A stretch of 64,000 nucleotides of DNA from Paraspadella gotoi (Eukaryota > Animalia > Chaetognatha): positions 17,201,172-17,265,171 of the forward strand of contig CM119265.1 in assembly GCA_051294375.1 (NCBI GenBank). Direction: 5' to 3'. Both the position numbers and the translations under genes were made by a program. The notes under the pieces are model-generated. The model saw only the letters and a list, made by a program, of their open reading frames with translations. It made no database searches and had not been told where the DNA came from. Below are positions 9,582-48,518 of this stretch, piece by piece (the stretch's first letter is position 1; each line of letters begins with the position of its first letter).

Positions 9582-9641
<60 letters not shown>

Positions 9642-9669
9642 ATCAATCAATCAATCAATAAAATATATA

Positions 9670-9704
<35 letters not shown>

Positions 9705-21469: not shown

Positions 21470-23554
21470 ATGAAAATCCTTTTCGTCCTAGTTTTGGTGG
21501 CTTTGAGCGTCAACAGCCTTTCGGCTTCTGTCATTCCAGAGAATCAATTTCGGGTAGACAAGAAATGGCAAAAGACAACAACAAGACTAGGGGTATCCCC
21601 ACTCAATGGGGTGCAGGGGCGGCGAGAGAAATGGCGGGCCCCCCCCACTGGCCCCCTGGCCGACACCCCCCACAGGCCCCCTGGCCGGCCCCCCCTGTTC
21701 TCCATAATTTTTGTTTTTAGTTTTCGATTACCGACTTTCTGCTTTGAGAATTGCTCCAGTGCTCAAACTTCTGCCTCCTCTTCTTTTTTCTTCTTCTTTT
21801 CTTTTTTTCTTTTTTCTTTCCTACTTTTTTCTCTCTTCTCAGGGCCATCCTGGGGGCGAATGAAACCCCCCTCTCGCCGCCCCTAATGGGGTGAGTAAAA
21901 AATTTCGGATGATTCCATGCTCAAACGAAAATTTCTACAATTTTAACTATACTTTCAAAGGACAAAACATTTCTTATATGGCTCTATACACAAATAATTA
22001 TTTTTATAATATTTATTAATATTTAATGATTTGATCCCCTTTTTGAGTTACTTTTACTTTCCCTGACCGGGGTTAGGGTTGGGGGTGGTTAGGGATAAAA
22101 GGGTTTAGGGTTAGGGTAATCAGATAATTTTTTTTTAAGTTTTTTTTTAATATAAGTATTTTTAAATGGTTTTTCAAAACCGCGTTTGGTGAAATTAAAA
22201 TTTAGCAAACTTTTTTATATTTTCACTTAGAAAACGGAATTTTTAAAAGTAATTATATTTCTATAATTATATATAATAGCAATTTTTAAAAGCTATAATT
22301 TTATTTCCCCGTTTAATTTTTTATGCTCGATCAGAATCAGAATCTGAATCTGGTCTTAAAATTTAAAATTTCCTCAAAATTATTTTGGACTTTCCTATCT
22401 ATAAATAAATATTAAAAAATTAATTACTATGGTATAGAGCCATATGAGAAATTTTTTGTCTATTGAAAGTATACTTAAAAATGTATAAATTTTTGTTTGA
22501 GCATGTACTCGCTCTAAATTTTTGACTTCCCACATAGACGAGACAAGACGTAGACCTGAGAAATATTTTTTTCTCTAGTTAAAAAGAGGTGGAATTTAAA
22601 AAAAACTTTTGACTAACGAATTTGTAATTTGTTCCATTAAAATTTAAAAAATAGGCAGTTTTAAGACAATCCTATCCAAATTGGAGGAATCGGGAGTTAA
22701 AATTTTTTCATACAACTATAATAGAGTTCACTAAGTGAAGATTAAAGACGTTTCTCGGTTTCTTTAAAATTAGGAGGTGCGAGGCGAGAAGGACGTTTTG
22801 ACGGACGAAGAAATTGCAAAAATCATCATCGACGTTATTGACGCCGAGGGGAACGTCGAGAAATACGGCATCATCTCAGTCATCACTCAACTCCCGGGTC
22901 TCATCAAGCAGTTTAAGCCGATTCTCTCGCGATACCTGGTCAGTATTCATAATTATTAATTATAACTATCGTATGACTATAAGGGGGAAACGTATAGGAG
23001 AGTGGGGAAGTAATGGAGAGCGAGACTGGAAAGAAGTAGCTTTCTAAACTTTAATGCTTTAAATTACAAAAAGCTTTATTATTTATACTTTTAGGACATC
23101 ATCCGAGACAACAATCTGAGTTTTGCTCAAAAACTAAGCAAAATCTGGGAAGCAACAAAGGAACAAATGGTTCCAATCATCAAGGTAAAATGATGGAATT
23201 TACTAATTAGTTCAGAAAATGTTCTATACATTAAACAATTTTCAGGTAAGGTACAAGTTTCATTAATTCTGATCAATGATATAAAAATTAATTTTAAATT
23301 TTAAAGCATGACTTTTAATAATTGTTGCGTATGTAACACTATGTATTCATAAATACAGAGAGTTGGTCACTCCCGAGTTCTTTTTTTACTGCTATTTTTA
23401 ACTACTTTTTACGCTGACTATATCTCAGAATGTTCACGAGTCACGACTCCGATTTCCATTGAATTTAAAAGCTAATTGTATTTTTTTTTCTTAGATTGTC
23501 GGAAGCGCTGCCGCGAAGGCAATTTTGGGCAACCTGATTTCTGCTGCGGCATGA
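21470..23554 (+). CDS. Orphan secreted amphipathic helical protein, 132 aa; exons 21470-21553, 22774-22938, 23095-23184, 23495-23554
   Basis: Signal peptide MKILFVLVLVALSVNSLSA; three phase-0 GT-AG introns; product ends ...GNVEKYGIISVITQLPGLIKQFKPILSRYLDIIRDNNLSFAQKLSKIWEATKEQMVPIIKIVGSAAAKAILGNLISAAA*. Confidence 0.8.
21588..22535. mobile_element. Foldback/MITE-like element with ~90-bp inverted arms (21897-21990 vs 22433-22522) and internal TTAGGG-like repeats
   Basis: The arms are reverse complements. The same left end (taggggta.cc...gctcaaacgaaaattt) recurs at ~54049-54200. Confidence 0.6.
21614..21885. mobile_element. hAT-type MITE
   Basis: TIR CAGGGGCGGCGAGAG / CTCTCGCCGCCCCTA; perfect 8-bp TSD ATGGGGTG (21606-21613, 21886-21893). 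Confidence 0.85.
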
Positions 23555-25257: not shown

Positions 25258-25370
25258 TTAAGAAGCATTTTCTTGACACTTGCCTTCCATGGAAAAAAAA
25301 AGACAAAGAAAAAGAAAAGAAAAAGAGTAAAACTAAGAGAGAAAGAGGGAGAACCACCCCAATAGCTCTG

Positions 25371-25690
25371 TTGCGCTAAGTGGGCTGAAGACATCTATCC
25401 GTTATCTTCTGTGCCCCCTCAGCAGCAATGGAACGGTTCCTGGGCAAAGAATTAGACTTGAGGGTTTTCCAGGCCCCCAAGTCTGTTTATTAGAGTGATG
25501 TGAAAATGATGTTTATGCTGAAAATGCTGTTTATGGCCGTCCTCACGCTTCCCGCAGAATAGGCACCATTGGGTCTCGATCCCGGTCATGAGCTGATGTT
25601 ATTACTCATTGAGCCACCGGGTCACGACTGAAGGTGACATGCTTATAGGCGGTGTTAACAACTGAACATATTGCAATGCCCGACTACAGT
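25371..25690 (-). mobile_element. Family D repeat, degenerate copy (tRNA-like head + decayed twister)
   Basis: Aligns by eye with 56527-56700. Minus strand has A-box-like TGGCTCAATG, B-box-like GGATCGAGACC, then GCGT-GA-GGA-CGGCCA-TAA-ACA-GC. Confidence 0.55.
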
Positions 25691-25701
25691 TCTATCATTT
25701 C

Positions 25702-28700
25702 TCATTTAGCCTTTATTGACTTCCGCCAACTTCGCTTGGCTTTCTACGTTCAAATATATTGAAATTCAAATTTTAAGACATCACGCCAATCCTCACCAGG
25801 TACCTTATGATTCATACGCCCTTATGGTTACCTGCTTCCTGTGCTCCCTTTCCATGTCTTTCTCGTCGACGTTGAGTTTCAGGGATTCGGCGATAAGATA
25901 TTCCTCGGCGAGGGCCTCTGCGGGGATGTTCTTGAGAGCCTCCACAGTCTCGTAGAGCCCTGGGCATTCGGCACATTGGGCCGAAGTTCCCAGAACAGAC
26001 TTGAAGAGAACGAGAGCGACGCGAAACAAAACTTTGATGCCTTCGCAGAAAAACATGTCCCAGACCTTCGGTAGATAATTGTAAATAATAATAAGTAAAT
26101 AAAAACAACAGGTTTAAACGTACTATATTACGAAGTTTCCTTTTGTTTCTAATATTTTGATAAAATCGTAATCATATTAAATTAATATATAGTCAACTTT
26201 TCAGTAAGTACAAGAACTTCAAACTGGACTGATATATTAAAAGAATTACGAGTTTAATCAAATCTTTTCGAATCGAACTAGATTGAATCTTACTCTGAGT
26301 ACTGAAGGCCAAGGTAGAGTCCTGCTGAAGACACACATAAACCACTCCATCATGATAAGGATGGGGTCGACCCTCTGCTTCTTCAAATGTTTGTAAGTCA
26401 CGTTGGAGGATTTTTTCAATAAGCCGAACAAGACTTCTCCATCAATTTGAACTTGCTCCAGGCCGGCGCTGTAGTAACCGGGCATGTAACTGCGAAAAAT
26501 GATAAATATTTAACGAAAAAGAGGCACTACAAAAAAAAAACAAAAAAAACGAAACAGCAAATACATTTTCAAGGCGCTCACCGGTCGCAAATGGAAGTGA
26601 GACTCCAGAAGGCTTGCTCCTCGGGCATATGCATGAGCAAGACGGAGGCGAGCGGTGCCATGGCTTGGCAGTAACCGTCGACGGGGTTGTGGGTGGCATA
26701 GGCGATGAGGACGTTGAAGAGGTTTTTCTGTCCCCAACCGCCGGCAGTCGCGAACATCTCGTGACAAGGAAATTGGCGGTGTAGGTCCTTCGTTATGTCG
26801 TCCACCCAGCGGGGGTCGTGCTCCTTCATTTTTTAAAGAAATTCAGTTGCTATTTCAAAGATCTAACCGAGAAAATACCCACACCCTCCTCTTGAATTTA
26901 TTGGCAAGTCAGTCAATTTTCAAATATACGTATATGACAATTTTTTTCTTTAGTATTCATATACTTTTCGAGATAAAAATAGCATGTACCATTTTAAAAA
27001 AAAAGACGCTCTTCTATTTTTTATGCCCTTGAATTCCTTTTTTAACGACTCCTCAGTCCTCACCATTTGTAAGAGCCTCTCATATCTGCCCTCGTGATGT
27101 TCCATCATGTATTTACTGCCACACAAATAGGACCAAGACAGGGCTCGTAACGAAGGTGGAATTCCCTTTCGACATCGGTCTGAAATAGGATTGAAATCCA
27201 TTTTATTCTCGCCTAGCAAAAAAGGAATAGAAACTAATATTTTTCACCCTTAATCTTGTGAAATCGTTTAGACATCCATCGTTCCCAATTGTCGATCATG
27301 TCCAGCCACTTCCGTTCTCGCCGGCGCATGCGCTCCACAGAAATCTAAATCGTTCAATTTATGAAAGAAAAAAATATCTAGAAATAGGTTAAACAAAAAT
27401 TATACATTTATTCAATAAAAAAGCTACCTTGCCCCTGACTTTGGATAGGTTTTAATGTTAAGGCCTCCGTCCCTCTTACAAAATAATACCATACTACATT
27501 CACGGTCTAACATACATGGTGACAATTTTACAAGCGCCGGTAGAAAAACGCTGTCATTTGCAAACCCATGAAGATTTTTTCAATGTTAAATATGAATTTA
27601 AAAGTAAAACCCAAACTATTTATATATGCAATTTTATCAGAATCGACTTTATTATTCCTCAGCAATGATAGCAGGAAGATGGATTGAAAATCGTCTCTAA
27701 TTTTTAAACTCACTTTTTTTAGATTTAATTTTTTTCTCTTACTTTCAGTAAGTTTTCTGAAGAAATTTGAAATAAAATAATATTAATATTATTATTTTCT
27801 GAAAGCCTTTTCAAATCTAAAGAGAATGAGTACTTACAAATACTGTAGTATAAGATTTAACTGGCCCAGCTTTAATTTAATTAGGATACTCAAAAACGAG
27901 ACAACTTTTTAAAAATCAATAGCTGGAGAGTAAATTTATGATTTTTATTAAATTGTGATTGGCTATTCTTAATCTTTGTTCAGGCTCTTTCATGATGCTT
28001 ATATAAAGAATAATATTTCATGTTATAATAATTTAAACAGGTCATATATTTTGGAAAAGATTTAAATATGTCCTTAAATAGATTCACTTTTGACGCACTT
28101 CATTTACTAAACCTAAAGGCTGAAAGCAGCTTACTTTTGACGTTAGAGCTTTTCGTACTAATATCAATTGCTCTCCTCATAATTTTTAAGCGGCTTCTGA
28201 GGATAAGTTTTAAAAAATTCGATTTTAACAAACAGTTTGAGTTGGAAAATAAAACCCTATTTGAAAAGACAACTTTCTCCACTAATTGTCAAGGCATATC
28301 TTAACTGATCAATATAAAATTCAGTATTTTCTACTCAACTAATTTTTAAAATCAATGAAATAACCACTGGTTTGCAAATGACAGCGTATTTCTACCGGGG
28401 CTTGTAAAATTGTCATCATATACGTAAACACTAAACAATAGCAATCACCCTATTCACCAAATAAAGGACGTACTTTATTAGGTAGACTAGTGTTGCCGGA
28501 GTATTGCTCGCTGCCAACGAAGAACCCGAATCTATCTGTTTGCACGAGTGTTACGCCTTCAGTTGCCGCCGCTGCCGCCTCCGCCGACTTGACGCCACCC
28601 CCATCCTCTTCTTCTTCCTCCTCCGACTCGGACTCGGAGTCGTGACGGCCAGCGTCCGACGAGCTCGTCCGAGGCCGCGCGAAGGCCACTCCCAGCGGCG

Positions 28701-30590: not shown

Positions 30591-31143
30591 TGAAGAGACC
30601 GTAATTATTATTATGTGTTAGTTGACTTTCCAGAACCGTTCAATATAAGGCATCCTGAGCTTCGGATCAGGCTTGTAAACACCATGTTACAAGGCGGGTT
30701 AAGCGCGCTCCAAACCTCCGTCAACCTCTACCGGCCTAAGACTGCCCACCTGGTTGTAAGGGAGCTGGGTATGAGGGAAGTGGACTTTGCGCTCCGGCAC
30801 GGCAATGGCCACGTGAGAAATCGCGGTGGTGGATTTTTTTTATTTTAGTCACCATAACATCCCCCCCTTCCCGTAGGGAAGAGAGAGAAGAGAAGAAGAA
30901 GGGAAGAAGTCTGTTGCGTCTCTTCAGTGAATTGTTGGTCGGGAAAGTTCGGCACCACGAAGTGAAGGCATGTGCCGCCTGAGATTGTCGTGTGGGTGGG
31001 CGGGACAGCAGGGAGGAAGACGAGCATGTCACCCCCAGGGGTGGTTTAGGCATGTCGCCTGGATGGAAAGCCTAGTTGTTGATTTTGCGTGTTTTGTGTT
31101 CGGAACGTCGGGTCACCAGTGAAGAGAGAGAGACCGTATTGTC
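30591..31143 (-). mobile_element. Miniature LTR element family A, divergent copy; 3' LTR 30591-30856, 5' LTR truncated
   Basis: Homologous LTR; PPT GGAAGGGGGGG; PBS TGGTGACCCGACGT (tRNA-Trp 3' complement); twister core at 30649-30746. Confidence 0.75.
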
Positions 31144-31857: not shown

Positions 31858-32510
31858 TACGGTGGACTAAAATCCACCAACCGTTCATCAGCGGCCATCG
31901 GTGCCGGAGGCAAGTCATTCGCCTCCCAACCCAAAGGTCCGGGTTCTTGCCCGGTGGTCGTCTGGCAGTTAAGAGACGGGGCGCTTAACCCGCCTGTAAC
32001 ATGCGTGCTTACAGCCTGATCTGAAGCTCAGGGACTGCTTTATTGAATGTTCTGTCATTAACACATATCAATTAATTACTGTCTCTTCATTGGTGAGGCC
32101 GACTCCGAACACAACCAGCAACAACACTTTCAGGCGACATGCCCTCTAACTAGCGATGCACTTTCCGCCATCAACACATCAGGCACATGCCTCAAACTTG
32201 GTGACGCAACTTTCCCCAACAACAACAACACTTGAAGAGACACAACAGGACTTCCCCTCATGGAGGGGGGATGTATGGTGGACTAAAAATCCACCAACCG
32301 TTCATCAGCGGCCATTGTGCCGGAGGCAAGTCATTCGCTCCCAACCCAAAGGTTCGGGCGTTCTAGCCCGGTGTGTCGTCTGGCATGTTAAGAGGGACGG
32401 GCGCTTAAACCCGCCTGTACATGGTGTTACAGCCTGATCCGAAGCTCAGGGACTGCTTTTATATTGAACGTTCATGTCACTTAACAATATCGAATATTAC
32501 TGTCTCTTCA
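31858..32510 (+). mobile_element. Miniature LTR retroelement (TRIM/retrozyme) family A: 5' LTR 31858-32089, PBS ~32091-32104, PPT 32262-32270, 3' LTR 32274-32510
   Basis: Direct repeats of ~235 bp, TSD ATCT on both sides, TGG-starting PBS 1 nt after the LTR, GGAGGGGGG PPT, no coding capacity. Confidence 0.9.
32382..32457 (+). ncRNA. Twister ribozyme type-P5 candidate in 3' LTR (second copy 31964-32039 in 5' LTR)
   Basis: GAGG-GA-CGG-GCGCT-TAA-ACCC-GC-P3-CCTGA-TCCGAAGC-TCAGG-GACTGC; T1 CCG/CGG and T2 GC/GC are complementary. Confidence 0.65.
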
Positions 32511-33370: not shown

Positions 33371-33992
33371 GGGTGATCATATAAGGCGGAACAAGGTAAA
33401 AACTAAGAGTTCCGTCATATAAATAACGTTAAAGCATCCCTGTGGGATAACGAAATTTTAAAAAAAATAAGATTTTATGTATAGTTAATTACATAGAAGC
33501 ATTTAAAGTTTATCGTATTACTATAAATCATGAAAATTTTATATTTCAAATTCAGAATTTTAAAAACGGATTCGGGTAAAGCTTGAAAAAATAAATAAAA
33601 AATATTATTACAAGAATTTCAAATTTTTATATTTTATTTGTTAAAATTAGCAAAAACTAAAAAAATTATGGTCTGAAGATGATGATGATTTTTAAAGGAT
33701 TTTTTCCCTTATTTGACCCACTTATCATCGAAATATTGAAAAACGCACTATACTTTGTGTAGACAACTTTTTATGGGCTATCTGAATCCGTTCTTAAAAA
33801 AAAAAAATTTTACATTTTTTTTCATTGCCTATGCATTTATAAATATTTAAATTCTTAAATGTTATACTGTGCTTCACTAGTTATAAAAGTGATGGCAAAT
33901 ATTGATTAAGTAAATGATGGACAAATGAATGTTATATGACAGAACTTCTAATGATAAAAAGGGATCAAATTTAACCCGCCTTAGTGGTCATC
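33371..33992. repeat. AT-rich MITE-like repeat with degenerate ..taaggcgg.. inverted ends; relative at ~52916-53455
   Basis: Inverted taaggcgg / ccgcctta ends; shared internal tc.gaatccgtt motif. Confidence 0.35.
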
Positions 33993-34721
33993 GAATATCA
34001 ATCACATTATTACTAATATTACTATACTATCACATTGGGTATTCGAATAACTGTTAGCTAGCAATGTTACTAAGCGAACTAGAACAAAATAATTAAGGAA
34101 AATACAAACTCGAGATACGATTACAATGAAATTATATTTTAAATGTGGTAAAAGTACTATTACTTACAGGTTCAGTTTGCCGAAACGAATAAAGAAAAAT
34201 TTAGAAACCAGAGTAGTACTTTTTCCTTCCCATACAATGTGAAACACGTAAAATAATTTGGCATGCAAGTACGAAAAAGATCAAACATCGTCCGTTTAGG
34301 AGGCAAAGATTCCATTCTAAATTCCCATATACATATTTCATTATTATTAATTCCAGTGCAGTTACAAAGCAAATCTAATTTCCCTAATGTGATTCAGTGA
34401 TAAGTATAATTAGTTTTTTCAAATCATTGCTTCTTCACGGATGAACGGTGAAAGTGGTTTTTTTAGTTTTTTTTTTTTTTGTTTTTTTTTGTTTGGTTTT
34501 TTATTTTGACATTAAGCTATATAAACATACTGCAAAAAAGTTCATGACGTGTCCAACTTTTGGTAAAAGAATAGCAGAGAAAGAGTTGATTATGACGAAA
34601 ACGTTATTTTTATCCAATGCATCAACGAGCAAATTTTATTCCCAGCATTACCTTTCAAATTATAAGAACCCTTAGTCAAGTAAAAACCCACTGGCGGCAC
34701 CTGAAGAAAAACTGAGTCATC

Positions 34722-37700
34722 TTAAAAATCACAATCCTGAATCTCGTATCGCATGACGTCCCCTTCCAGTAAATGAGGCGACGTGTGAAAAAAACTGGGA
34801 AGCGTGGTCGGTGACAGAGGGTCACCGGCGCTGACGTTAATGAAACCGAGGAAAGAAAACATTCTTATCAAGGTCGAGGTGGCATTGGGTCCCCCTAAAC
34901 CAGAGCTTCCAGAACGCGCCGTTATCTTTGGCAAGCAAATGAAAACTGACTCGCAACCCAGTTGGTCCTCAGCGAACTCCAGCAACTGAATTAAGCTGCA
35001 AAGCAAGTTGAGAAAAAACTGTAGCAGAGGAGGTGTTGAACTGAAATATTGCTGCAATATTGTTGCTACAATTATTGTCAACGTTAACCGTAAAAAATGA
35101 ATATTGATTAAATCTTAAATTAAAACATTCCTGTACTCGCCTCTCTTTAGATCCAGACGCGCCTCCAGACGGAAATCGTGGCACGACGAGAGCCTTGTTG
35201 CACAACACGGCATCCCAGACAATCTCCAGCGAAGAAGTCAGCGGCACGGTGAACTTAACAGGGACGGCGAGATCGTTCGCCTTTCCCACTACTTCCCCGG
35301 CCGCCTCTTTCAAAGGCCCGTGAAACGTCGAGAAGCTAAATCCAGAATCGTCATCGCTAGAGCGAGGAGGGAGAGGTAAGAGGGAAATGACAAGCAAAAT
35401 GAATAAGAAGGATTAACGGAGCCGAGAATTAAATTGTAAACCTAGTCGGTCCGTCCTCGCTGTCGGAGTCATCCAAGTCCGATGAAGTCGCCGAAGAAGT
35501 CGAATCGACCGTGGAGGCCCCGTCGCTGGACATCCTGGTCCTTTCGACAGGATTAGACAACGAAGTGTTCCCATCTAAAAGACGTAAAATATATTTATAC
35601 ATACAGTACGTACTAAAGGCGCCCACCAGGTACAAAATTCCTAGTGTAAAACTTAACAATTTTACGACAATGCTTATGAGATTACCTTTTCCTGGATAAC
35701 CGACACCGTTTAAGCCAAAGCCACTTATCGGACCCACGTGTTGAGTCGTTTCATTAACTTGTCCAAGAACATAGCGTGATTTGAGCCCGGAAACACCCTT
35801 AAAGAATGAATTTATGGTTTTTATTTGCGCGGCGAGTACTCGCGGAGCAACTGTCACTTTTCGGTCGGTCTGTCGGTATATCTGTCCATTGGTCTATACC
35901 ACTTACGTTAAAAATGCATATACTTTGCTCATTTGTTAATACAGGAAAAGGCCTCAAATCTAAGTGACTGCTAGCTCCGACTTCAGGAAATCCTAAAACT
36001 TTAAAGAACAAAAGACAAGATTCTGATGCAATGCGTGTCATAAATACTCGTGAATTTTTTTTTTTTTAGAAGAAATAATATAACCTTAAAAAAAATAACT
36101 GTGGCGCAACACGTTTGAATAACCGTTCTTGTTTTTATCGTAATTCGTGAAAGTTACGTACCTCGGTGACATTGAAGGTGTCTACGCGATCATCATGATG
36201 TTTGACAATCACAGAGGGAAAAGAAGATTCCCCCACGCTGCTACCCTCTGCCAATAGTGACACGTCGTTTGCAGCATGGGGAGCATCAGGAACACCACAG
36301 AGGCCCCTCCCCCGGGTTAGAGGAGCAGAGGGAGGCCGGCATCACAGATGCGGAGACGATCTGGGATCCACTCATGGAGGTCCTTAAACATGAAAAGGAA
36401 TTTCGAGATTAAAATTAGATTATCTTCTCGAAATGAGTTTAATGATTGATTTACCACTGATCTTGATACTACGTCAAAAAAAAAAAGGTTGCGACCGATA
36501 AAGTTCACTACTACGCAGTAGAATAAGGCCGTATTGTTTAGAATGTTATCAACCGAGAATTATAAGGGTCGGTTTCGAAACAAAAAAAAATAAACGCAGG
36601 GGATTCGATTTTTCGCCCTTCACAACAGAGATCGAGATCACGAACCCGATAAAAACAAACGTAAAAAAATATCCAGGATGAGGGAGAACGTTGATTGAGG
36701 AAGGCAATTTCATTGGTTACTGACGAATGGCGATTGGTTCCGAGAAGGAGATTCAAAATGTGATGATTAATGAGTTGAGAGGTAAATAATTATTAGCAAT
36801 TAGACATTTTAAGCTATGCCTATGAACAATTTTGAGAAAAAATACAAGACCGAACCGAAATACAACAAAGTTGAAAAATCGACTTTCTTCTCAGTCACTT
36901 ATACTTACCGATTATAGGAATTAGACTTATCAGTCTGTTGGTTCTTATTCCAACAACCCTCTCTAAAACTAACACGAAGGTTAGTAAAAGTTTTTATAAA
37001 TGCGGCCCAAGAACAAAACCAAAGTCAAATACTAAATAGTGAAGAGACAGTAATTATTGTTATGTGTTAGTGACAGAACCGTTCAATATAAGCAGTCCCT
37101 GAGCTTCGGATCAGGCTGTAACACCATATTACAGGCGGGTTAAGCGCCCCGTCCCTCTTAACAGCTAGGCGACCACCGGGCTAGAACCCCGGACCTTTGG
37201 GTTGGGAGGAGAATGACTTGCCTCCGGCACCAATGGCCGCTGATGAACGGTTGGTGGATTTTAGTCCACCATACATCCCCCCTCCCATAGGGCGAAGTCT
37301 GTTGCGTCTCTTCAGTGAATTGTTGTTGGAGGAAAGTTCGTCACCAAGTTGAGGCATGTCGCCTGATGTGTTGTGGGCGGAAAGTGCATCGCCAGGTTGA
37401 GGCATGTCGCCTGAAAGTGTTGTTGTTGCTATTGTGTTCAGAAGTAGGGCTCACCAATGAAGAGACAGTAATTATTGTTGTGTTAGTGACAGAACCATTC
37501 AATATAAGCAGTCCCTGAGTTTCGGATCAGGCTGTAACACCATATTACAGGCGGGTTAAGCGCCCCGTCCTTCTTAACTGCTAGGTGACCACCGGGCTAG
37601 AACCCCGGACCTTTGGGTTGGGAGGAGAATGACTTGCCTCCGGCACCAATGGCCGCTGATGAACGGTTGGTGGATTTTAGTCCACCATAATAGGTTAATA

Positions 37701-37904
37701 ATTTCAAACTGAGAGCGTTTGCTAAAGTTTTACCACAAACTTCACAACTTTACAAGTTTGTATTGAAAACGTTTTGCACATGAAGTTAATAATCGCACAA
37801 AACTAGTTCACACAAAGGTTTTCATATGGAATTATACAGTTGACATACCCAGTACTCCTTGGTATACTGTCAAAATTTGATGAGCCTTTTTTATTTTTTG
37901 CCAT
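34722..37904 (-). CDS. OAZ1: Ornithine decarboxylase antizyme (+1 programmed frameshift), ~354 aa; exons 37904-37849, 36962-36909, 36382-36162, 35797-35686, 35574-35442, 35356-35141, 34995-34722
   Basis: 68-codon ORF1 ends GGG CCT CTG TGG TGT TCC TGA T. ORF2 begins DAPH and contains GSKESLIQLLEFAEDQLG...LIRMFSFLGF. Confidence 0.93.
36212..36291 (-). promoter_or_regulatory. Antizyme frameshift site (TCC TGA, 36291-36286) and 3' stimulatory pseudoknot
   Basis: Stem 1 CCCCATGCTGC (36281-36271) / GCAGCGTGGGG (36241-36231); stem 2 CAGAGGG (36250-36244) / CCCTCTG (36218-36212). Confidence 0.85.
37091..37166 (-). ncRNA. Twister ribozyme type-P5 candidate in LTR (second copy 37507-37582)
   Basis: AGCWGTT-AA-GAGG-GA-CGG-GGCGCT-U^AA-CCC-GC-CTGTAAT/GTTACAG-CCTGA-TCCGAAGC-TCAGG-GACTGCT; predicted cut 37142^37141. 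Confidence 0.7.
37169..37240 (-). promoter_or_regulatory. 72-nt tRNA-like module inside LTR (putative Pol III internal promoter)
   Basis: Acceptor-like stem GCGGCCA/TGGTCGC; T-arm CCGGG-GTTCTAG-CCCGG with B-box-like GGTTCTAGCCC. Anticodon arm not canonical, so not a functional tRNA. Confidence 0.6.
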
Positions 37905-38613
37905 TTTTCTTGCGCAGTCGAATTCTATCGTGATTACGATGATATGAAAATCAGTCAAGGAGACCTTGACGAAATCAGAGATCAATGGTTGAATCGTGGG
38001 GAAAGCTTAGAGGAATGTGACGAGCGTTTATTCAGGCCGGAGGAAGAGTCTTCGCTGCAGCAGCAGCGGCGGCAGCCGGTGTGAAGTTAAGACCCGTGGC
38101 TGCAGAGCAGCAAATCGAGAAAAGCTTGTGTGCGGCAGACAAACGTTGGTTTCTTATAATTTTTTAGTTATTATTACTAATAAAATAATAATTTAAAGAT
38201 AGAAAATTGGAATAGTGTCAATTTTTATTAAAATTTCAAAACATATAAAAACCGTAGTGGCATTATTCCGTTCTTAATTAAATTTAGCTGTTCTTTTGTT
38301 AAAAGCACAGAAATGCCAAATTGTTTTCATCTTGTTTATCTTTTATAAGTAACTATACTATTATATAAAAAATGTTACGTCTGGTTTTAGAACACGTTCC
38401 TTAAAAAGGTTTAAGAAGGAGAGGTAGAGAGAATAACAAGGAGCGCGAGACCTTGCCAATCCATGCCCGGTTCGCTTTTCTCACCGGCTTATATCCCATG
38501 AGAAATTGTTTCGCAATAATCACATATTTTGGTGAAAGTTATGTAAGACTCTCGTCGTTCATTGTCATCGTGTGCTTTTCCAGGTATTTACCGAATAAAG
38601 AATAAAGAAAAGT

Positions 38614-40500
38614 ATGGACTTTGGATCGAGTAGTTTAGGGGGAGGAGGCGGCGGCGGCGTCGGGGGTCGTCTCTCGGGCGCCCAGAAAGAAGCGCTCATG
38701 GAGCAAGTAAAGCAGCAAGTAGCCTTACAGGTATAATTTGCCACTCATTTTACACCGGGGTCGATGAGAAGTTAGGAAAATTTAAAGGGTGGGGCTTACA
38801 ACCGAGGTTCAGTACTATTAATTATCTGTGCTGCTGTATCTATTTTAGACATTCAACGAACTTTTGCAAAAGATGACGAACAAATGCTTCACGAAGTGCG
38901 TCTCGAAACCAGGCAAGCGTTAATTTAAAAGTTTTAATGCCTTATGACTAGGTACTGTTTTTAAATCCTGACTCATTAGTAGTCATTAGTAGAGTGATGT
39001 GAAAATAATAAAATTTTAAAAAATTAAAATTTAGCATATAAAACATAAAATTAAAATTTAATAAAAATATTTTTTTTTTATTTTTATGAAATTGGAACAA
39101 CCAATATAAAAATTATCCATTCATTTAATAAATAAGCTATCTTGCCCCTGACTTTGGACAGGCTTTGGTGGTTTAAGGCCTCCATCACTCTTACAAGATA
39201 ATGACATAGCAGGTCCCTGCATTTATTAGTGGGTGCCAGTGAGCTATTTTTATATATAATAATATATATAATAGGCTAAAATTTCAAAATGAAAATTTTT
39301 AAATTTTAAGATTGGATTTTAATTCTTTGTAAAAAGTTGATATAAAGAATGAGTATTAATTTCTTTTAAAAAAAAATTTTCAATAAGTTGGACAGAAATA
39401 TAAAAATGAAATTTGAGATAACGAAACTTTTTAAGACTGGGGGGGGGGGGTAAATTAAAAAGACATAAAGCTTAGCAGACTGAAAACCCCGGAACCAATG
39501 GCGTCGTAAAAGTTATTTTAACTGTTTATTTTTGAAAGTTACGTGATTCCCGTTTTAATAATTTAGTATAATTAATATTATTTTAAAAAAAAATATTTTG
39601 AACAACAAATTTATTTAGAATGAATTCAATTCATTTGCGCTGATGAAGGCTTACATTGAAGCTGAAACATGTTTATTTTTTATATTAAATAAATTATTGT
39701 TCAAAATAAAAAAAAAATTTTTAATATTATTAATGTAAAAAACGAAAGAACCAAAACAATATAATAAAGCATTAGTTATTTCTATTCAAATCCATGAAAT
39801 GTATACAGAATAGTACAAAAAATTTATGGCAGTATTTACGAATAAACTTTTTATAAAATTAGTACAACTAATATAAAAATTATTGCAGTTATTTAATAAA
39901 TAAGCTATTTTGCCCCTGACTTTGGACAGGTTTTGGTGGTTTATTTTAGAAAGAAGTTTCGAAATCTCGAATGACCGCGAAAGAAAGAAACGAATATTAA
40001 TATATATATATATATATAAATATATATATATTTATATCTCCGATATAAAAAAGTATCTGAGTTGTAAATGATCGTCCAGACTTTACAAAGGCTGATTTTT
40101 AATTTTTACCTTAAAAATATAGCTTTTTATTATTTGAACATATTTAATGACATAATTTATGAAAAAGATTTATATTTTTTTTCTTAACTTTTATCAAGGA
40201 ATCTGAATGTGATCTCAGAATTTAAAAAAAATTATTTTAAAATTTTGATAATATATAATTAATAATAAAAAGTAATTATAGATTAGTATTCATTAATATA
40301 ATAGTTTTCAAGATATAACTGTTAAATTTTTATTCCTAACTCATTAGTTTAAATATTACAAATATTTACATCCGTTAGGTACCTCTTTGGATAGTGGGGA
40401 ACAACGGTGCCTAACTTATTGTATGGAGCGATATATGGATACGTGGAACGTTGTTTCAAAGACTTATCAAAACAGGATTTTAAAAGAAAGAGGATCCTAA
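38614..40500 (+). CDS. TIMM13: Mitochondrial small Tim chaperone Tim13; exons 38614-38730, 38849-38912, 40379-40500
   Basis: MEQVKQQVA...[37 protein letters not shown] twin CX3C motif; intron 2 has a GC donor. Confidence 0.92.
39086..39240 (+). repeat. Short interspersed repeat (atgaaattggtacaacc...aagctatcttgcccctgactttggacaggc...); copies at ~27420, 39870, 46452-46840 (interrupted), 47526, 57023
   Basis: Near-identical blocks recognised at six positions. Confidence 0.8.
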
Positions 40501-40661
40501 CCGATAATTGATTCAAATTAGCAATCGATTGACCTTGTGCGCATCTGCCGTGATAGTGAAATTTGGATTGATAAACTCGTACTGACCATTCATACCATCG
40601 CCATCTCTTTTGTTATCATCGTTGTTATGATACTATTTAACGCCTAACTTTCAGCTTTGGC

Positions 40662-41606
40662 ATGAAAATATTTAGGAAATATGGCTTCCGAATTGCGACG
40701 GGAACGATATTTGCCGGCGTCGGGCTATCATTCTTACCCGAGGTGGCATTTCCTGAGAAGCTAAAATTATTTTACGCATATCACGTTGTCGAAAATGAAA
40801 AACGGGTCGCGCTTCCCCTTACCGTTGAACTGCGAGACATGTTGGACTCGGAGATGAGAAAATGCGGATACACGGCCCAAGTCGAAGCTTTTTTTACTCC
40901 AATTGTTCCTACGAGTATCTTCGATACTTTATTTACGCCTCTTGTCCCTCCGACGGTCATTGAAGTTTCCAAAGGCAGCCTCAAAAATTCCAAGGGAGGA
41001 GTCATCGGGCTTCCCTTCTACTTTAAGTTCCTTCCGGAACGAGATTTCGAAGTATTAAAACGATACCTATGTTACGAAGGCATTGAGGAGGAGACGGCGA
41101 ACCGTTTAACAGGCAACTTGTTGTTGTCGGACGATGCAAAAAGGTTCTACATTTCTCGCGAGCTGCATCGTCTCTCGTTCGAGTCGTTTTACTGGAAAGT
41201 CGCTTTTCTTACGGCCGGTGCCGCTTCCGGCTCTTTTTTATACCACACTTGCGGTCTCTCATTAAATCTCCGTGCGAATCGCTTCGTGACTTTTATTATC
41301 GGATCCACTTGCGCCGCTTTGGCCTTCGCGACATTCGTCTCCTTGTTGGGACTTAAAAATCACAAGGTTGCGCGGGAAGCGGACAAAAAATGCTTGGAGA
41401 TGGGCCCAAATTACGTCGCCGGCGGATCAGAATTCTACACAAAAACAATCGGCAAAAATCGAACGCTTCGCCTCTGTGGCTTCTCCGATCACTTTAGCCC
41501 CGTTGGAAGCGAACGTTACCGTTTCGGTTTGCACCCCGACTCGATTGCGCGCTTCGAGAATTTTCGGGATTATCGTCAATCTAAAACTATCGTTCCAGGG
41601 CCATGA
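40662..41606 (+). CDS. TMEM177: TMEM177-like mitochondrial inner membrane protein, copy a (intronless)
   Basis: 314-aa ORF; IGLPFYF, LLLSDDAKRFYISREL, hydrophobic helices, GPNYVAGGSEFYTK..KNRTLR. Confidence 0.75.
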   Translation: MKIFRKYGFRIATGTIFAGVGLSFLPEVAFPEKLKLFYAYHVVENEKRVALPLTVELRDMLDSEMRKCGYTAQVEAFFTPIVPTSIFDTLFTPLVPPTVIEVSKGSLKNSKGGVIGLPFYFKFLPERDFEVLKRYLCYEGIEEETANRLTGNLLLSDDAKRFYISRELHRLSFESFYWKVAFLTAGAASGSFLYHTCGLSLNLRANRFVTFIIGSTCAALAFATFVSLLGLKNHKVAREADKKCLEMGPNYVAGGSEFYTKTIGKNRTLRLCGFSDHFSPVGSERYRFGLHPDSIARFENFRDYRQSKTIVPGP

Positions 41607-41665
41607 CTGTCATTTATTCATCAACGTTATGTTATGAGTTTCCATCCCTTACAGGTGATCGTATA

Positions 41666-42352
41666 ATGGCTTTGGCCGTCGACCCTCCGCAACCCTTTTC
41701 CGCTTGGCTCGAAACTCATTTTAAGTCCCTCAACGCGGACGTCGATAGTTGTTTGGTAGACTATATCGTCGGTATGTTGGAGACTGAAGAGGATGAAGAA
41801 TCGCTTGTTGAAGGCCTCTCCGAGATCCTGGAGGAGATTGCAAGCGACGAGAAGGAACCAACTATTAGACTTATCGTGGCTCAATGGAAGGAACACCGCG
41901 CCATCGGAGAGTTGGAGACCTCGGCCTCAACAGCGTCGTCTTCTGCGTTCGATTCAGTCTTGGCTTCCGCTCTCGAAAAGCAAGCCGCCGTCGAAGCCAA
42001 GCCCCAACGAAGACTCACTAAAGACGATAAGGAGCGTCTCGAGGTGAAGGAAGCGATTCTCAACCTGGCCGCCGCATCCGCTGCCGAGGATGGCGCCCAC
42101 GGGGATGACGGCAATGTGGGACTTACCGCAGATTCCGTGGACGGGGAATCCGCCGCGCCCTCGCTTGGTCCCGCCAACCTAAACGTCCAAAAAGTTTTTG
42201 AGGAGAAGAGAGAGAAGCGAGAGCAATCGCAGAAACAGGCCGAGGCAAAGAAGTTAAAGGATAAAGAAGATCGGGAAAAACAAAAAAATCAGAAACTTGA
42301 TAAAGCCGAAGCAGAAAAAAAGAGAACTCAAAAGGGTGAGAGGCGGAGATGA
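41666..42352 (+). CDS. CCDC43: Coiled-coil domain-containing protein 43
   Basis: FSAWL...YIVGML N-terminal PWI-like region; C-terminus EKKRTQKGERRR. Confidence 0.88.
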   Translation: MALAVDPPQPFSAWLETHFKSLNADVDSCLVDYIVGMLETEEDEESLVEGLSEILEEIASDEKEPTIRLIVAQWKEHRAIGELETSASTASSSAFDSVLASALEKQAAVEAKPQRRLTKDDKERLEVKEAILNLAAASAAEDGAHGDDGNVGLTADSVDGESAAPSLGPANLNVQKVFEEKREKREQSQKQAEAKKLKDKEDREKQKNQKLDKAEAEKKRTQKGERRR

Positions 42353-43491
42353 TTAACTTAGTTTTTGGGATTTTTTTTTTTCGAAATTCGAAATTTGATT
42401 GAACTTTAATTAAAATTCTAAAAGTGAGAAATGAACAACATTGTACTAATGAACATTAATGTACAAAATTTTTTTATTCTATTGCGTAAATTTTGCAATT
42501 TAGGCAATAAACTATATATATAGTGTAAACCTTATCAATTTTTAAATTATTTTGAAATCGTCATAAAAAGTTCATTAAAAGAAATATTACTATATTTTAA
42601 AAATTATTTTGATCAGAAATCATAAAAACCTATATTTTAACCTGAAAATTAAATTTTTAAATATTAAATTTAGTATTTTTAATTTTTAACACACTTAATA
42701 AAAGAATTTTTAAAAATGATTTATATTTTCTTATAGGGGAGTGCGGGGTAATTCGGAACAGGGGTTATTCGGAATAAAATAAAACAAGTTTGAGCAAACA
42801 ATGTCGGATCTGCCCACGATCATTAACGGTAATTAATTAATAAATTTATTTATTTGATCCGACATGTTTGTTTTTGGGTCTTTTCGTCACTGACCACGAC
42901 AAAAGCGACGACGACGATGATGGCGACGACGAAAATAATGCCAATAACGATTTACTTGATTGATTGATTAAGTAATTAATTTATAAATAAATTGAATGAT
43001 TGAATAATTAATTTATTAATTTTCGGATTAATTATTAATTAATTAATTGATTAATTATTTAATTAATTATTTGATTAATCAATACATCTTGCATTTACAT
43101 TTAATATAAAAAAAAACCAGCATAATCAATTAGTGTTTTTTTCTATTTAAACTTAGACGATTCCATCGAAACTTGATTTCCAGCTTAATCACACACTTTC
43201 CTCCACACATACAAAATTTCAAGTCAATCGCCCCATCCGCAATAAAATAGCTTTTGTTGTTTTTTCCATTTAAACTCATTTCCACTCGCACGATTCGATC
43301 GAAACTTCATATCCAACTCAATCAGACACTTCCCTATAAATTAATGTTTACTGGTAGTATATTGTTCATAATCGACTTTTAGAATTTTCATACGTGAATT
43401 TCACTACGCTCTATTGCTTAGTTATAAAGTAATTTCGAGTTTTAACTGCTGAGATGTATACTTGTTTCAAGTTATTATATATAACGTAAGG

Positions 43492-44988
43492 ATGAATTCT
43501 GTTGCTACGTTTTTGGCGTCTCATGGCTTGACTGTCGCGGACCTTATTCCTGGAACCATAGCTATAACTTACACTGCATTACAAATACCTTCTGAATGGT
43601 ATCCCGAATACGTGGTTGATTATCTTCACCGATGCGAGCACAATGAAATCTTCAATAATAAATCCCTTCTCCACATGATGGACCGAGAGTTTTTAGAAAG
43701 CAACATTGACGTTTACAACATTGTTAATGCACAGGTTCGTTGATATCTGACGTTTTTTAAAGAAAACATTTTTTCTCGATTAATTATTTAAATATTCCTC
43801 TTCTTTAAATCTTCCTTCTTCTGATCAGCATTATGTTTGTTGCAACGAAGATTCGTTCGGAAAGGGATATTTTGGCGTCGGTATTAATGCGATGTTCGGC
43901 ATTCCGCTCAACTTCGCCTTCGAATCTCTTGCGGAGGCGGATAAGGGCAAGGAGGCCTGCCTAACTGATAAACGTCACCCTACGTTTTTACGATGGCGAA
44001 ATCGACTTCGAAGCTTTTTCTCACTCGAGGATGATGTTGAGATTCCTTCTGTAGATTGGGACTCTTCCGAAGGACGCGCCTATCGTGACTCTCTTCTTCT
44101 TTCGCCGATGGCTAAGCGATTTGCCATCGCTCGAGACATCCGCCGGGCCGACACGAACCACTTGATTTGGACTGGTCTGTCGGCTTATTTGGCTTCCGAA
44201 TTAGGAAGGGTTTGCTTCGACAAATCTTTCAAACGTTTGACTCCAAACGAACAACGTCTAAATCGGTATCGGTACTTTTCTTCGGCGCTTATTGTGGGTG
44301 TTGGCTTTTGGATGACTTGTGTTAAGCTCAGGTAAATTCTACTACGTTAACAATTAAACTAGATAGTAGATATGGTTCTTGAGGAATAGGAATATAATCG
44401 TGGGATCAGGAAAGAAGCACCACATTCAGATTGTGTTTCTTTAGGAATTTTTACTTTGAGCGACGTGCAGACGACTACAGCGCAACGATAGGGCCAGACT
44501 ATGCCGCTGGAGGCCTCGAATACTACGATAAGCTTATCCAAAGAAACCAGGCTCTTCGAAAGATCTTAGGAGAAAAAGGAGAAAAAAGATTCGACGAGAA
44601 GGGAAACGTTAGAAACTCTATTGACAATTGGCTGACGAATTTCAACATTCCCTTTTTTCATCGATGCTTGACGGTAATTGTTTGAAACTCCTTTTTCCAA
44701 CACACTGTTTATTTATGCAACGTTAAAAAATTCATTTTCCAGGAAAAAAGAAATTTCGTTGCACAGATTTGTCAAAATTTTGACGCCATGTCTTTTTCCG
44801 AGCTAAAGGATCACTTTGAAAAGACCGAGGTTCACCGCCAACCTTTTCGGTCCACGCTGCTCAATATTCGGAGTCACGATTGGAGGAGCAATGAAGTTAA
44901 AAACTTGGAGAGAACCTCCGGCTTGTTAGAATTCGAAAAGGAAGTAATAAAGGAAACTGAAAAGAAAGCAGGAAACTGTCCCGACTGA
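43492..44988 (+). CDS. TMEM177-like, copy b; exons 43492-43734, 43829-44331, 44445-44673, 44743-44988
   Basis: FGIPLNF, DSLLLSPMAKRFAIARDI, GPDYAAGGLEYYDKLIQRNQALR; phase-consistent introns. Confidence 0.75.
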
Positions 44989-45076
44989 CGTGAAGATATT
45001 TTGTGATCTTCTTTGTTTACGATTGTTTACGATACTAGTACTAGTTTGTGTTGTTAATTCAGTCTTTAATTTACGA

Positions 45077-47324
45077 ATGAATGCTCGTATCTGGGCTGGA
45101 GTTACGGCGACGGCCGTATCTGTGGCGGCGTTATACGGGGCGTCAACCAGGAATGGGAGATCAGACTCAGAGAGCAAAGCTAGTCTCCTGGCTAAGGGAG
45201 AAACGACTTTGAAAGCAGATGAGGTGATTGTGATTCAAAACGGCTTAGACGCTAAAGCAGAACGCCGTTCCAAGCAAAGACGAATTTTTTCTGAAGCCAT
45301 CGAAAAACTTCCGAGCGTATTTCCTCTTCCATCAAACATATGGAACGTCAACTGGGACGCCCGACATACATCTTCCAATCAGTCTGCCTCTTCCGATCAA
45401 TCTCACGACGGCACCGTCAACAGCACGAGTTTGCCAACGTCTTCCCGTCATCTTTTTCTCATTCGCCACGGCCAATACCACACGGAAAAAGCTCGGGAAA
45501 TCGATCGGAAATTGACTGAGTTAGGATCAGAGCAACTCGACCTCACGGGACAGCGATTGGCCGATTTAGGCATTCAATTCGATCGCATGGTCGCGTCCAC
45601 GATGACGCGTGCCCAAGAGTCGGCGAGGATAATCCACAAGCGATTTCCTGATCTCAACTTTGAAAGCGACCGTCTACTGGAAGAGGGAGCGCCCGTCCCG
45701 CCCGAGCCTCCAATGAAATCGTGGGCGCCTCCATTGGAACAGTTCTTGGAAGACGGACCGAGGATAGAGGCTGCGTTTCGAAAGTACTTTCATCGCGCCG
45801 ATGTATCTCAAAGTAGCGACTCACATGAAATACTCGTTTGTCATGGAAACGTGATCCGATTTTTTGTCTGCAGAGCGCTACAGGTTGGAGCATGTCTTTC
45901 ACTATTGGTATTGCTATATGGTAAAATAAAATTGCCGCGGAAACTTTTTAACTATTTTTTTGCCATTTTAATGTAAGAATCGAAAAATAAAATTTAAACA
46001 TCAATAAACTTTGGCCTTTTGTGATTCATATGAACTATCATGCAAAAGAAAATTTGTTGTCCAAGAAAATGTTTCCTTCTTTTTTATATTTAAATTATTG
46101 TAAATTTTATTTTTTATACTACTTTTTTCTATTGCTTTTTTTTAGTTGAACCGGTATTATTAAAGAGGACTGCCTTTGCTGTGTCTCATGTCAAATGGTT
46201 GCTGCATCATCTTCATTAGGATAGATTTAAGGATGAATCTTTATTCATATGTAAAAGAAGATACATTGATGCTGTAAATGCTTCAGAATAGTTTTCATAT
46301 TGTAAAGCATCAATAAAAGTTAAAAAGCTCCGGGTAACTTTTTTGTAAGCAAAATTAATATTTGTATTTATCTCAAGATTTATTTATCTCAGTAATCAGT
46401 ATCAAGTATCAAACAAGTCGAAAATAAAATAAAATATTTTATAATATTATTATGAAATTGGTACAACCAATATAAAAATTATTCATTTCAAAATAAATAA
46501 ATAAGCTATTGTGGCAGCAAGACTTAAAGCTGCCTCACTGCTGTCCGTCCTCAGCCTCGTCTCAATGGCTGAGCAGGCTAAATCATCTCATTCCATCCGT
46601 GCGTCCCGGGTTCAATCCCCGGGTATCCCGGTTCTGGCTTAAATGTGACGGCGCCGGTATAAACATGCCAGTGACAGGAGGCGGTCACTGAGGGTCCGCA
46701 GCCCCTACGCCAGTTAGTGAGATACCCCGCGCCCCGGGTATCACAGGCTATCCTCCCGTTGCCATACTATCTAATTTGGACAGGCTTTGTTGGTTTAAGG
46801 CCTCCATCACTCTTACAATATAATGACATAGCAGGTCCATTCAAGCTTTCAATCAGGACTCTCAGTCTCGATTATTCACTCCCAGAGTGCATTAGTATAT
46901 TGTGCAGCAATAACAACATTTTAGTATGTTTCATAAGTGATCAGTCCTTTTTACTGTTTGCCAAGGACCATTTCTCACCACAAATCTGTTAAAAAAGTTA
47001 AATAATTTTGTTGTTGAAAATAGATATTCTTATTCCATCCTAACTAGGTTTTACTATAAATTAAAACATATTTTTTGCAAGAAACGTATTTGACAATGAA
47101 GTTAACTAATTTTTCTAAACCGCGACAATTTTTTTTTCCGTAATTTTATTAATAATAACTTATGACCTATTTTACCCCTGCTGTAGATCCCTCCGGAGGC
47201 CTGGCTTAGAATGGGAGTCAATCATGGCTCGATCACCTGGTTAACTGTCCGCCCCAGTGGTCGAGTCGTTTTGCAGTCGCTCGGAACTACGGGTTATATG
47301 CCACCTAAGAAGATTAGTGTTTAA
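45077..47324 (+). CDS. PGAM5: Mitochondrial Ser/Thr phosphatase PGAM5; exons 45077-45883, 47187-47324
   Basis: [50 protein letters not shown]. Confidence 0.93.
46510..46766 (+). mobile_element. Solo LTR family C (257 bp) with tRNA-like head and twister, in PGAM5 intron
   Basis: Termini TGTGGCAGC...GTTGCCATA; exact TSD CTAT (46506-46509, 46767-46770); A-box TGGCTGAGCAGG, B-box GGTTCAATCCC. Confidence 0.8.
46634..46713 (+). ncRNA. Twister ribozyme type-P5, best-formed copy
   Basis: P5 CTGGC/GCCAG, P2 ACAT/ATGT, G-A, T1 CCG/CGG, U^AA (46660^46661), T2 GC/GC, P3 CAGTGAC/GTCACTG, P4 AGGG/CCCT. Confidence 0.8.
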
Positions 47325-48518
47325 CCTGAAGTTACAAAGGTTTATTTTATTGCTAATCCAATGGGTTTTATGGTCGTCGGCGGCGTCTTCCTAAGTCATC
47401 ATGCCGTTTCTTTTCCCCATTAAATAAGTCGCTTTTTTTAAACAGAAATTAACGGGTGAAGAGACAGTACAGAAATAATTGTTATGAGACTGTTATAAAA
47501 AAATTAAAAATGTTATTTTTGTTATATGAAATTGGTACAACCAATATATATTTGTGTAAAAATTAAGGTAAATTATGGTTAAGAATAAATCAAGTGTGAT
47601 TTAATTAAAAAAATAAGTTAAGGTAAGTTCGGGGTAAGTTAGGGTTAGGGGTAAATTAGGGTTAAATTTAAAATTAAGTTTCGGCTTAAGTATATAATAA
47701 TTTAAAATTTCAAAAAATATTTTAGTATTAATAAATTTATAAAAAAATATATTAATAATATTTTTAAAGTAACAGAGTTTTTATTTATGATTACAACGAT
47801 CATTTAATAATTCGGACAGAGAGAGATATCAAGGTTAAAATTGCCCCTCTCTCTACCTCCCTCTACCTCTATCAAAGTTAGTATCCAAATATTTTTTAAA
47901 ACTATCAAAGCTGACTGATGAAGATTCGAAAAACAAGAACCAAAACATATCCGAATTATTAAATGATTGTGGTAATCACAAATAAAACTGTTATTTTGTA
48001 AATATCTATCAAAGGCATTGAAAAAACAATTACTAATATTAAAAAAAAAAAAATTTAAAGAATTCAAAAGAAATCCTTAGCTCGTGAAGCTTGAAAACGT
48101 TTTTAATATCATTGTTGTTACGGTCTTAAATTTTTTTTCGTAAAGAAACGAACTTTATTTTTTCCTCTTCGTTTTCCCATAAGCCTCCAGAGCGTATTCA
48201 ACTCCGGGATCCCTATTTATATTTAATTATTTTTTTAATTTTATTTATAAATTATAAATCATGGGTCCAATGCAACGGTTTCAAAAAAACATCGTTGGAT
48301 TCGAACCTCAACCTGCTATCCTCGTTATGTAATCGCTATAGTTATAATTTTGCCATCAAAACTCGCGTTTTCCGTGTATCCAATTTTTACTTAATATTAC
48401 GAGGATCCCTATTACTTGAAGATTTTTTAAAATCGAGGATCGTACCCGACATCATACGATTATATGGCTTTGTTTTGATCACAAGTTTTAAAATGTATTT
48501 TCAGAAAAGTTGATAAGA

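Follow-up and report, generated by a model that had tools for sequence, protein, structure and literature searches.

How can a retroelement with two identical ends define the ends of its RNA when its promoter lies within the repeat itself? This question is raised by a noncoding long terminal repeat (LTR) element of the chaetognath Paraspadella gotoi, found in a 64,000-nt stretch of contig CM119265.1 (assembly GCA_051294375.1, positions 17,201,172 to 17,265,171, forward strand), hereafter the window. The element is the youngest copy of a repeat family that we call family A (37040..37689, minus strand, read from 37689 to 37040), and each of its LTRs contains a tRNA-derived module followed by a predicted twister ribozyme. 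By its anatomy it is a terminal-repeat retrotransposon in miniature (TRIM) of the Helenus type, and it most likely works like a retrozyme, although it lies outside that family as defined by hammerhead and primer. Tentatively, and as a possible rather than a probable reading, we propose that it represents an unrecognized class of self-powered animal LTR retrozymes, in which RNA made from the tRNA-derived promoter would give rise to a circle, its two LTR twisters being able to cut solely as a strand-swapped dimer. Such a dimeric twister would be the first one known from nature. Gall-wasp Helenus elements, which have the tRNA-Trp primer as well, would have evolved the combination of promoter and ribozyme anew, in their case with a hammerhead.

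Anatomy of the element

As stated in the original prediction, the youngest copy is exactly 650 nt long. Its 5′ LTR (37458..37689, minus strand, as are all features of this copy) begins with TATGG, finishes with TCTTCA, and has 232 nt, while the 3′ LTR (37040..37273) has 234 nt; they are identical at 227 of 232 aligned letters, with an additional 2-nt gap. Contigs of the X1 set, which contain family A and spliced joints, diverge from the window sequence exactly at 37040 (n = 42) and 37273 (n = 7), confirming the LTR ends and indicating many insertion sites. Target site duplications (TSDs) of 4 bp, reading CTAT, flank the element (37690..37693 upstream and 37036..37039 downstream). Directly after the 5′ LTR lies a primer binding site (PBS) of the tRNA-Trp type (37444..37456), which in both young family A copies agrees at 11 of 13 letters with the tRNA-Trp PBS of Kojima's Fig. 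S2 (PMC10886601), and directly before the 3′ LTR lies a polypurine tract (PPT; 37276..37286). The longest stop-free frames across the element are 75 and 89 amino acids. A second element (31858..32510, plus strand) has the TSD ATCT, and a decayed third copy (30591..31130, minus strand) has lost most of its 5′ LTR. The 11-nt purine tract and the tRNA-Trp-type PBS were present in all three copies; the PBS of the old third copy matches at one letter fewer, tRNA-Trp still being the nearest type. Each family A LTR begins with a 7-bp hairpin (37253-37271 and 37669-37687, minus strand; z score, −3.4).

The youngest copy sits in sense orientation in an intron (36382..37847, minus strand), given by an X1 splice joint, of the ornithine decarboxylase antizyme gene (34563-38230, minus strand), whose introns were taken from X1 joints and which has a PF02100 match on a downstream exon. 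A +1 frameshift is expected in this gene. Since X1 consists of contigs only, we used neither its summed depth (9,000 to 24,000 on the element and ca. 1,755 on the host exons) as evidence of expression nor its loose ends (42 versus 7) as evidence of RNA ends. The junction of an RNA circle would equal LTR sequence.

Helenus (TRIMp3; Kojima 2024, PMC10886601) is likewise described as a short noncoding LTR element with tRNA-like A and B boxes in the LTR, a PBS, and a PPT. Its size range of 311 to 1263 bp includes the element studied here, and animal Helenus elements have 4-bp TSDs, as do the two young family A copies and a solo LTR of another family, C (CTAT). The tRNA-Trp primer is common to our element, Helenus-2_SyJa, and Gypsy-32_NVi in that source, and use of RNA polymerase III (Pol III) is predicted only, in Helenus as here. 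The original prediction of a hybrid between an LTR and the head of a short interspersed nuclear element (SINE), with Cassandra as precedent, was thus supported in substance, but the hybrid is of a kind already described, and Helenus is closer than Cassandra; Cassandra and Ajax TRIMs likewise have an internal Pol III-type promoter in the LTR, theirs being 5S-derived and not tRNA-derived. Because the element has the structural features of Helenus, the idea of a promoter within the LTR was already known. What is new is that an animal LTR has a predicted twister beside its putative tRNA-derived promoter, and that the P1 helix of this twister is palindromic.

A tRNA-derived module in the LTR

The module of the 3′ LTR spans 72 nt (37169..37240, minus strand, read from 37240 to 37169), and one of identical type occupies 37585..37656 in the 5′ LTR. 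We could see the features first ascribed to it: its ends pair across 7 bp (GCGGCCA/TGGTCGC), a 5-bp hairpin resembling a T arm contains GGTTCTAGCCC, and a gap of 2 nt separates its end at 37169 from the start of the closing helix P5 of the twister at 37166. A gapped 20-letter pattern drawn from the family A module retrieved at least 126 loci, and 114 of the 126 listed were tRNA genes according to ARAGORN (among the matches listed, 66 Val, 28 Ile, 12 Thr, and 8 other); the pattern itself biases both this set of tRNAs and its shuffle control. The module aligns with the fetched genes collinearly and over its full length, its 3′ half being in register with real tRNAs. The high proportion of tRNA genes and the end-to-end alignment point to a tRNA origin, as predicted, while the parent isotype is not fixed: Val was the commonest match, an Ile(TAT) gene gave the best whole-length alignment among the matches listed, and the module has CCC in place of an anticodon.

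The module is tRNA-shaped only loosely. Its predicted fold is a long stem without a cloverleaf (z score of −2.2 and −3.8 in two copies and −1.0 in the third), and only two of the five anticodon stem positions pair in the tRNA register, so that the cloverleaf and the intact anticodon and T arms of a functional tRNA gene are lacking. ARAGORN at its default threshold called no tRNA genes, and an Rfam scan of three stretches gave no tRNA match at an E value of ≤10. With relaxed settings, ARAGORN called the module of the second family A copy (31891-31962) as tRNA-Gly(CCC), one of nine calls in the window, whereas 6 of 500 shuffles of the LTR of that copy yielded a call; the same settings gave no call in the youngest 3′ LTR or in family C. 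The corresponding modules of families C, D, E, and F aligned with the fetched tRNAs no better than shuffles did. Judged by its sequence, then, the family A module is derived from a tRNA and is now no tRNA itself. Self-priming by the module was considered and dropped, as by eye it contains no complement to the PBS.

Putative promoter boxes

We scored A and B boxes by consensus rules, allowing one mismatch. In the 3′ LTR of the youngest copy, an A-box-like 12-mer (37221..37232) is followed after 44 nt by a B-box-like 10-mer (37179..37188), each with one mismatch, and the corresponding boxes of the 5′ LTR lie at 37648 to 37637 and 37604 to 37595. The boxes originally reported in two further families were also located. 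Family C, a solo LTR with the TSD CTAT (46510..46766, plus strand), has an A box (46566-46577) and a B box (46609-46618) without mismatch, 43 nt apart. Family D is a probable solo LTR (25369..25660, minus strand; TGTT...AACA), around which no TSD was found, with an A box (25616 to 25605) and a B box (25582 to 25573) 34 nt apart and a decayed twister downstream of them. The word GGTTC occurs in the boxes of A and C, and the A box reads TGGCT in C and D and TGGTG in A; the Helenus words are TRGCY (YGG in most) for the A box and GGTTC for the B box (PMC10886601).

The position of the boxes is similar in all three families, with 46 nt (A), 51 nt (C), and 49 nt (D) between the B box and the predicted cut. 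By our rule, there were 14 A/B pairs in 128 kb (both strands of the window), four of them inside these elements. The chance that a fixed site has an A/B pair 40 to 60 nt upstream is 0.23%, and this was the case for A, C, and D. In A and C, the boxes persist at a spacing of 43 to 44 nt although the cloverleaf is gone, a conservation of the promoter type. From this position and spacing, transcription of the element by Pol III appears likely.

Several observations weigh against a promoter function. Each family A box departs from the consensus by one letter, and the one-mismatch rule was passed by only two of the four full family A LTRs, both from the youngest copy; both LTRs of the second copy failed. 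There is no A/B pair upstream of the twister of the related family B, which has a T5 run after it. The lack of a TTTT run on the sense strand of the youngest copy, put forward at first as a sign of Pol III, is real but within chance (P, 0.20 to 0.44): 20 to 23% of 650-nt shuffles and 30 to 44% of 416-nt shuffles (the distance between the two predicted cuts) lacked TTTT as well, and the second copy has one such run. Although only 15 of 544 GC-matched 650-nt stretches of the window lacked TTTT, we rejected T-run depletion as evidence for Pol III. The first T-run downstream of the youngest element is 22 nt beyond its end.

The tRNA part might be the dead relic of a SINE or a mere RNA stem, attached to a twister retrozyme fed by host read-through or by another, Pol II, promoter in the LTR. 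The imperfect boxes of family A, their absence from family B, the stable stem formed by the module ends in two of three copies, and the sense orientation of the youngest copy inside a spliced gene all fit this explanation, and read-through has been proposed for retrozymes (PMC7761336). What it leaves unexplained is that three families with otherwise unlike LTRs hold A/B boxes at a like distance from the cut, each at the low chance given above, and that the boxes are perfect in family C although it has no tRNA fold. We regard this explanation as quite improbable and retain Pol III transcription as the likely alternative.

A predicted twister ribozyme

Downstream of the module in the 3′ LTR, we identified a P5-type twister motif (37091..37166; predicted cut at 37142/37141) with helices P2, P3, P4, and P5 and both pseudoknots. 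The descriptor, which specifies the P5 permutation, both pseudoknots, and a free linker of 3 to 30 nt, matched three times in the window, namely, in the 3′ LTR of family A, in family B (39138..39200, minus strand), whose twister is related to that of family A, and in family C (46634-46713, plus strand; cut site at 46660/46661), compared to six matches in 100 block-shuffled windows (0.06 per window). All three have the P5-type features (GANGG, UAA, P2, P4 with a UCCNNAGY loop, T1, T2, and P5 closure) and well-paired P3, P4, and P5. P2 has four pairs in C, whereas A and B have two pairs and a mismatch each; in the T2 pseudoknot, B has AC/GU where the other two families have GC/GC. Across families, we found paired changes in P2, T2, P4, and P5. 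The motif of the 5′ LTR (37507..37582; cut position at 37558/37557) has lost one pair in P2 and another in T2, and because of these two broken core pairs, the youngest genomic copy is probably crippled. Three positions of the twister are mismatched or form a wobble in the window copy; there, most of the X1 depth has a pairing letter (among the variants listed). We consider it likely that the ribozyme of the element is a twister, with predicted self-cleavage at U|A.

Against this assignment, Rfam scans gave no twister match for family A, in which P2 is short, and the weak twister matches for family B (25.8 bits versus a gathering threshold of 37.6) and family C (18.4 bits on the P1 model versus 67.2) are far under gathering. 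The nested fold of the twister region is no more stable than that of shuffles. These points would suit an ordinary Helenus TRIM in which the twister-like fold is accidental or inactive, but such an explanation has to contend with three descriptor matches where shuffled windows give 0.06 and with paired changes in four helices and pseudoknots among the families, and we deem it very improbable. A degenerate pattern of the A and B twisters found no relatives in metagenome and viral contigs. We discarded the reading of a plus-strand CTGATGA as part of a hammerhead, since the PBS and PPT are on the minus strand and the Rfam scans gave no hammerhead match.

A palindromic P1 helix

The predicted twisters do not have P1 as a looped hairpin but a loop-less palindrome of 6 to 8 nt instead, a feature absent from the original prediction. 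The linkers between GANGG and the cut are GGCGCT in A (37143..37148, minus strand), AGGCCT in B, and CGCCGGTA in C (6, 6, and 8 nt), so that all three intact twisters are self-complementary there, with no room for a loop and with the centers GCGC, GGCC, and CCGG. The linker of the decayed family F reads TCCTAGGG, with the center CTAG, and those of D and E are each one letter off a GGCC-centered palindrome. Four different palindromic centers would be expected with a probability of ca. 2e-5 at LTR composition, if independent. Where family A has CG at the center of the linker, the related family B has GC, and by the sequences this exchange makes a difference solely to the pairing of one strand with another. 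As a control, we collected 104 loci with a P5-twister pattern allowing linkers of 4 to 30 nt, 60 of which failed a pairing filter; the remaining 44 represent 28 distinct motifs. In these phage and prokaryote twisters, the linkers had 12 to 26 nt, and none of the 28 had a palindromic center.

A loop-less palindromic P1, absent from the 28 controls, suggests that the two LTR copies cut as a dimer. The strand-swapped dimer was estimated to lie 11.7 to 13.1 kcal/mol below two monomers (nested pairs, pseudoknots ignored), and dimeric type I hammerheads with palindromic loops are described as cutting as dimers (PMC7229834). In our model, the twister copies of the two LTRs probably cut as a pair. The evidence has its weaknesses: the palindrome of D and E is derived from two decayed copies with one mismatch each, in family A copies that are decayed or bear indels it is not cleanly preserved, and the pattern used to collect the control twisters had fixed letters and yielded sequences from prokaryotes alone. 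Moreover, twisters without P1 are reported to cut, albeit less efficiently (PMC8501958), so that a dimer is perhaps unneeded.

A possible replication cycle

Combining these elements, we lean slightly toward a chain of events that runs from a Pol III promoter through paired twister cutting, a 416-nt unit, and a circle to copying by a helper Gypsy element. Pol III would start at ca. 37656, in the module of the 5′ LTR, read through both LTRs, and stop in the flank, where the first T-run lies 22 nt downstream of the element. One duplex would arise from the palindromes of both LTRs, serving as P1 of two strand-swapped cores, and cutting would be delayed until the second LTR has been transcribed. 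A terminator in the LTR would end transcription in the first LTR, while a ribozyme dependent on its twin would act only once the second has been made. Cuts at 37558/37557 and 37142/37141 would yield a leader of ca. 99 nt and the 416-nt unit, which would retain the promoter copy of the 3′ LTR near its 3′ end. The original idea that the ribozyme removes the promoter would thus apply to the copy in the 5′ LTR and not to that in the 3′ LTR.

The 416-nt unit has no terminal repeat left, and because of this, circularization would be needed for two-LTR copying; since it keeps a promoter copy, both LTRs could be rebuilt by reverse transcription. Ligation of the RtcB type would close the unit, tRNA-Trp would prime reverse transcription around the circle, rebuilding two LTRs, and a helper Gypsy element would copy the circle back into DNA. 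RtcB circularizes animal retrozyme RNAs in vitro (PMC7229834), tandem twister constructs produce circles in mammalian cells, and the PBS types of animal Helenus elements suggest Gypsy helpers (PMC10886601). A point against this scheme is that the unit, folded as a circle, is not unusually structured (z score, +0.75; 47% unpaired) and not highly paired, unlike the described retrozyme circles; the role of Pol III, the cleavage, and the circle are all predicted.

Alternatively, a Pol III promoter could be combined with active twisters that each cut alone, giving a linear RNA with no dimer and no circle; the cut in the 3′ LTR would then substitute for a terminator and leave a 99-nt terminal repeat for strand transfer. 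Such a scheme would agree with the reported cutting of P1-less twisters and with a unit RNA that is not highly paired. A T-run directly after the tRNA part is also seen by eye in many of the mollusc and wasp LTRs published for Helenus (PMC10886601), at the position that the ribozyme has in this LTR. An identical 5′ ribozyme would, however, cut too and delete the repeat, and independent cutting leaves unexplained the four different palindromic centers at a place where a cis hairpin needs no pairing. We find it unlikely, though worth keeping in view, and prefer paired cutting.

Relation to Helenus, retrozymes, and other ribozyme-bearing repeats

The element differs from Helenus in the twister that follows the tRNA part. 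In the available text of PMC10886601, ribozymes are named only in a reference title and none is described in Helenus, Cassandra, or Ajax; by eye, the animal consensus LTRs given there contain no twister, although line breaks may hide motifs. In the LTRs of Helenus-2_SyJa and Helenus-2_SyUm, from Synergus gall wasps, we noticed by eye CTGATGAG and GAAAC cores with complementary flanking arms, placed after the B box. Of the five occurrences of CTGATGAG seen in the supplement of that paper, two are these wasp sequences, and the three fungal ones were not read as ribozymes. From its letters, the core of the Synergus Helenus-2 LTR is likely a type III hammerhead, also accompanied by a tRNA-Trp PBS.

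Plant LTR retrozymes (Cervera 2016; PMC7761336) resemble the element in having a PBS, a PPT, a 4-bp TSD, no open reading frame (ORF), and a ribozyme in both LTRs, with a unit-length RNA expected between the two cuts, and promoter activity is reported for the LTR of one plant retrozyme (PMC9695139). They have a type III hammerhead and a tRNA-Met PBS, as opposed to a twister and a tRNA-Trp PBS, and the element further differs from them in its animal host, its tRNA-derived boxes, its unit RNA, which is not highly paired, and its circles, which are predicted. Animal retrozymes lack LTR, PBS, and PPT (PMC7761336, PMC7229834). These metazoan non-LTR retrozymes share with the element an animal host, a weak palindromic helix that is better as a dimer, and an expected role of RtcB (PMC7229834); theirs are hammerheads, whereas the palindrome here is P1 of a twister.

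Schistosoma SINE-like hammerhead repeats go by the name of Sm-alpha. Like our element, they combine a Pol III promoter with a ribozyme and leave the promoter 3′-terminal in the unit after cutting (PMC6765202), but they are tandem repeats of a non-LTR kind, in which the promoter is lost from single copies, whereas here LTR duplication would restore it. The T-variants of Schistosoma Perere-3 (PMC8501958) are likewise twisters with a weak or missing P1 in a retroelement. That twister lies at the 5′ end of an autonomous non-LTR element without LTR or tRNA head, its P1 comes from the TSD, and the term "dimer" is absent from the text available to us. In the searched literature, including the accessible parts of PMC13570524, PMC10085705, PMC11662667, and bioRxiv 2022.07.19.500677, we found no LTR-element twister, ribozyme-bearing Helenus, or natural dimeric twister, within a coverage that was incomplete.

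Other repeat families and neighboring genes

Family B consists of the twister and an AT-rich tail with a short palindrome, with the T5 run and without an A/B pair, and occurs at 27395-27493, 39053-39216, 39842-39943, 46421-46838, 47457-47548, and 57053-57133. The last 12 letters of the fragment at 47457 are identical to those of the family A LTR, and on sequence grounds, B may be a sister LTR family of A. One family B copy (46421-46838) has the solo LTR of family C inserted into its twister region, and the TSD of this solo LTR has the same letters as that of the youngest family A copy. Further decayed twister repeats were found at 56510-56700, 56312-56465, and 5030-5247 (all minus strand). The decayed repeats represent family E, a relative of D, and family F, which has the 3′ half of the family C twister with an A-box-like word upstream. 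In D and E, one G-C pair of the T1 pseudoknot may be replaced by A-U.

In another GC-rich island (47200-47260, plus strand), an A-box-like word is closely followed by a B-box-like one, possibly marking a further repeat family. Inverted-repeat elements resembling small DNA transposons occur at 21886-22535, 53116-54595, and 33558-33851. The window also contains a long array of 132-nt repeats resembling EGF-type domains (4500-11120, plus strand) and several compact genes (40641-45976, plus strand), including PGAM5 (best named matches with 54% identity). The ORFs at 40641-41606 and 41585-42352 gave no Pfam match.

Implications

If the proposal holds, TRIMp3 elements and retrozymes, which have been described separately, would become joined, and LTR retrozymes would extend from plants to animals. 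It would offer an answer to how an element with identical ends defines the ends of its RNA under Pol III, and twisters would gain a natural role. Dependence of a twister on dimerization would be a behavior new among ribozymes and of use in the design of RNA circles.

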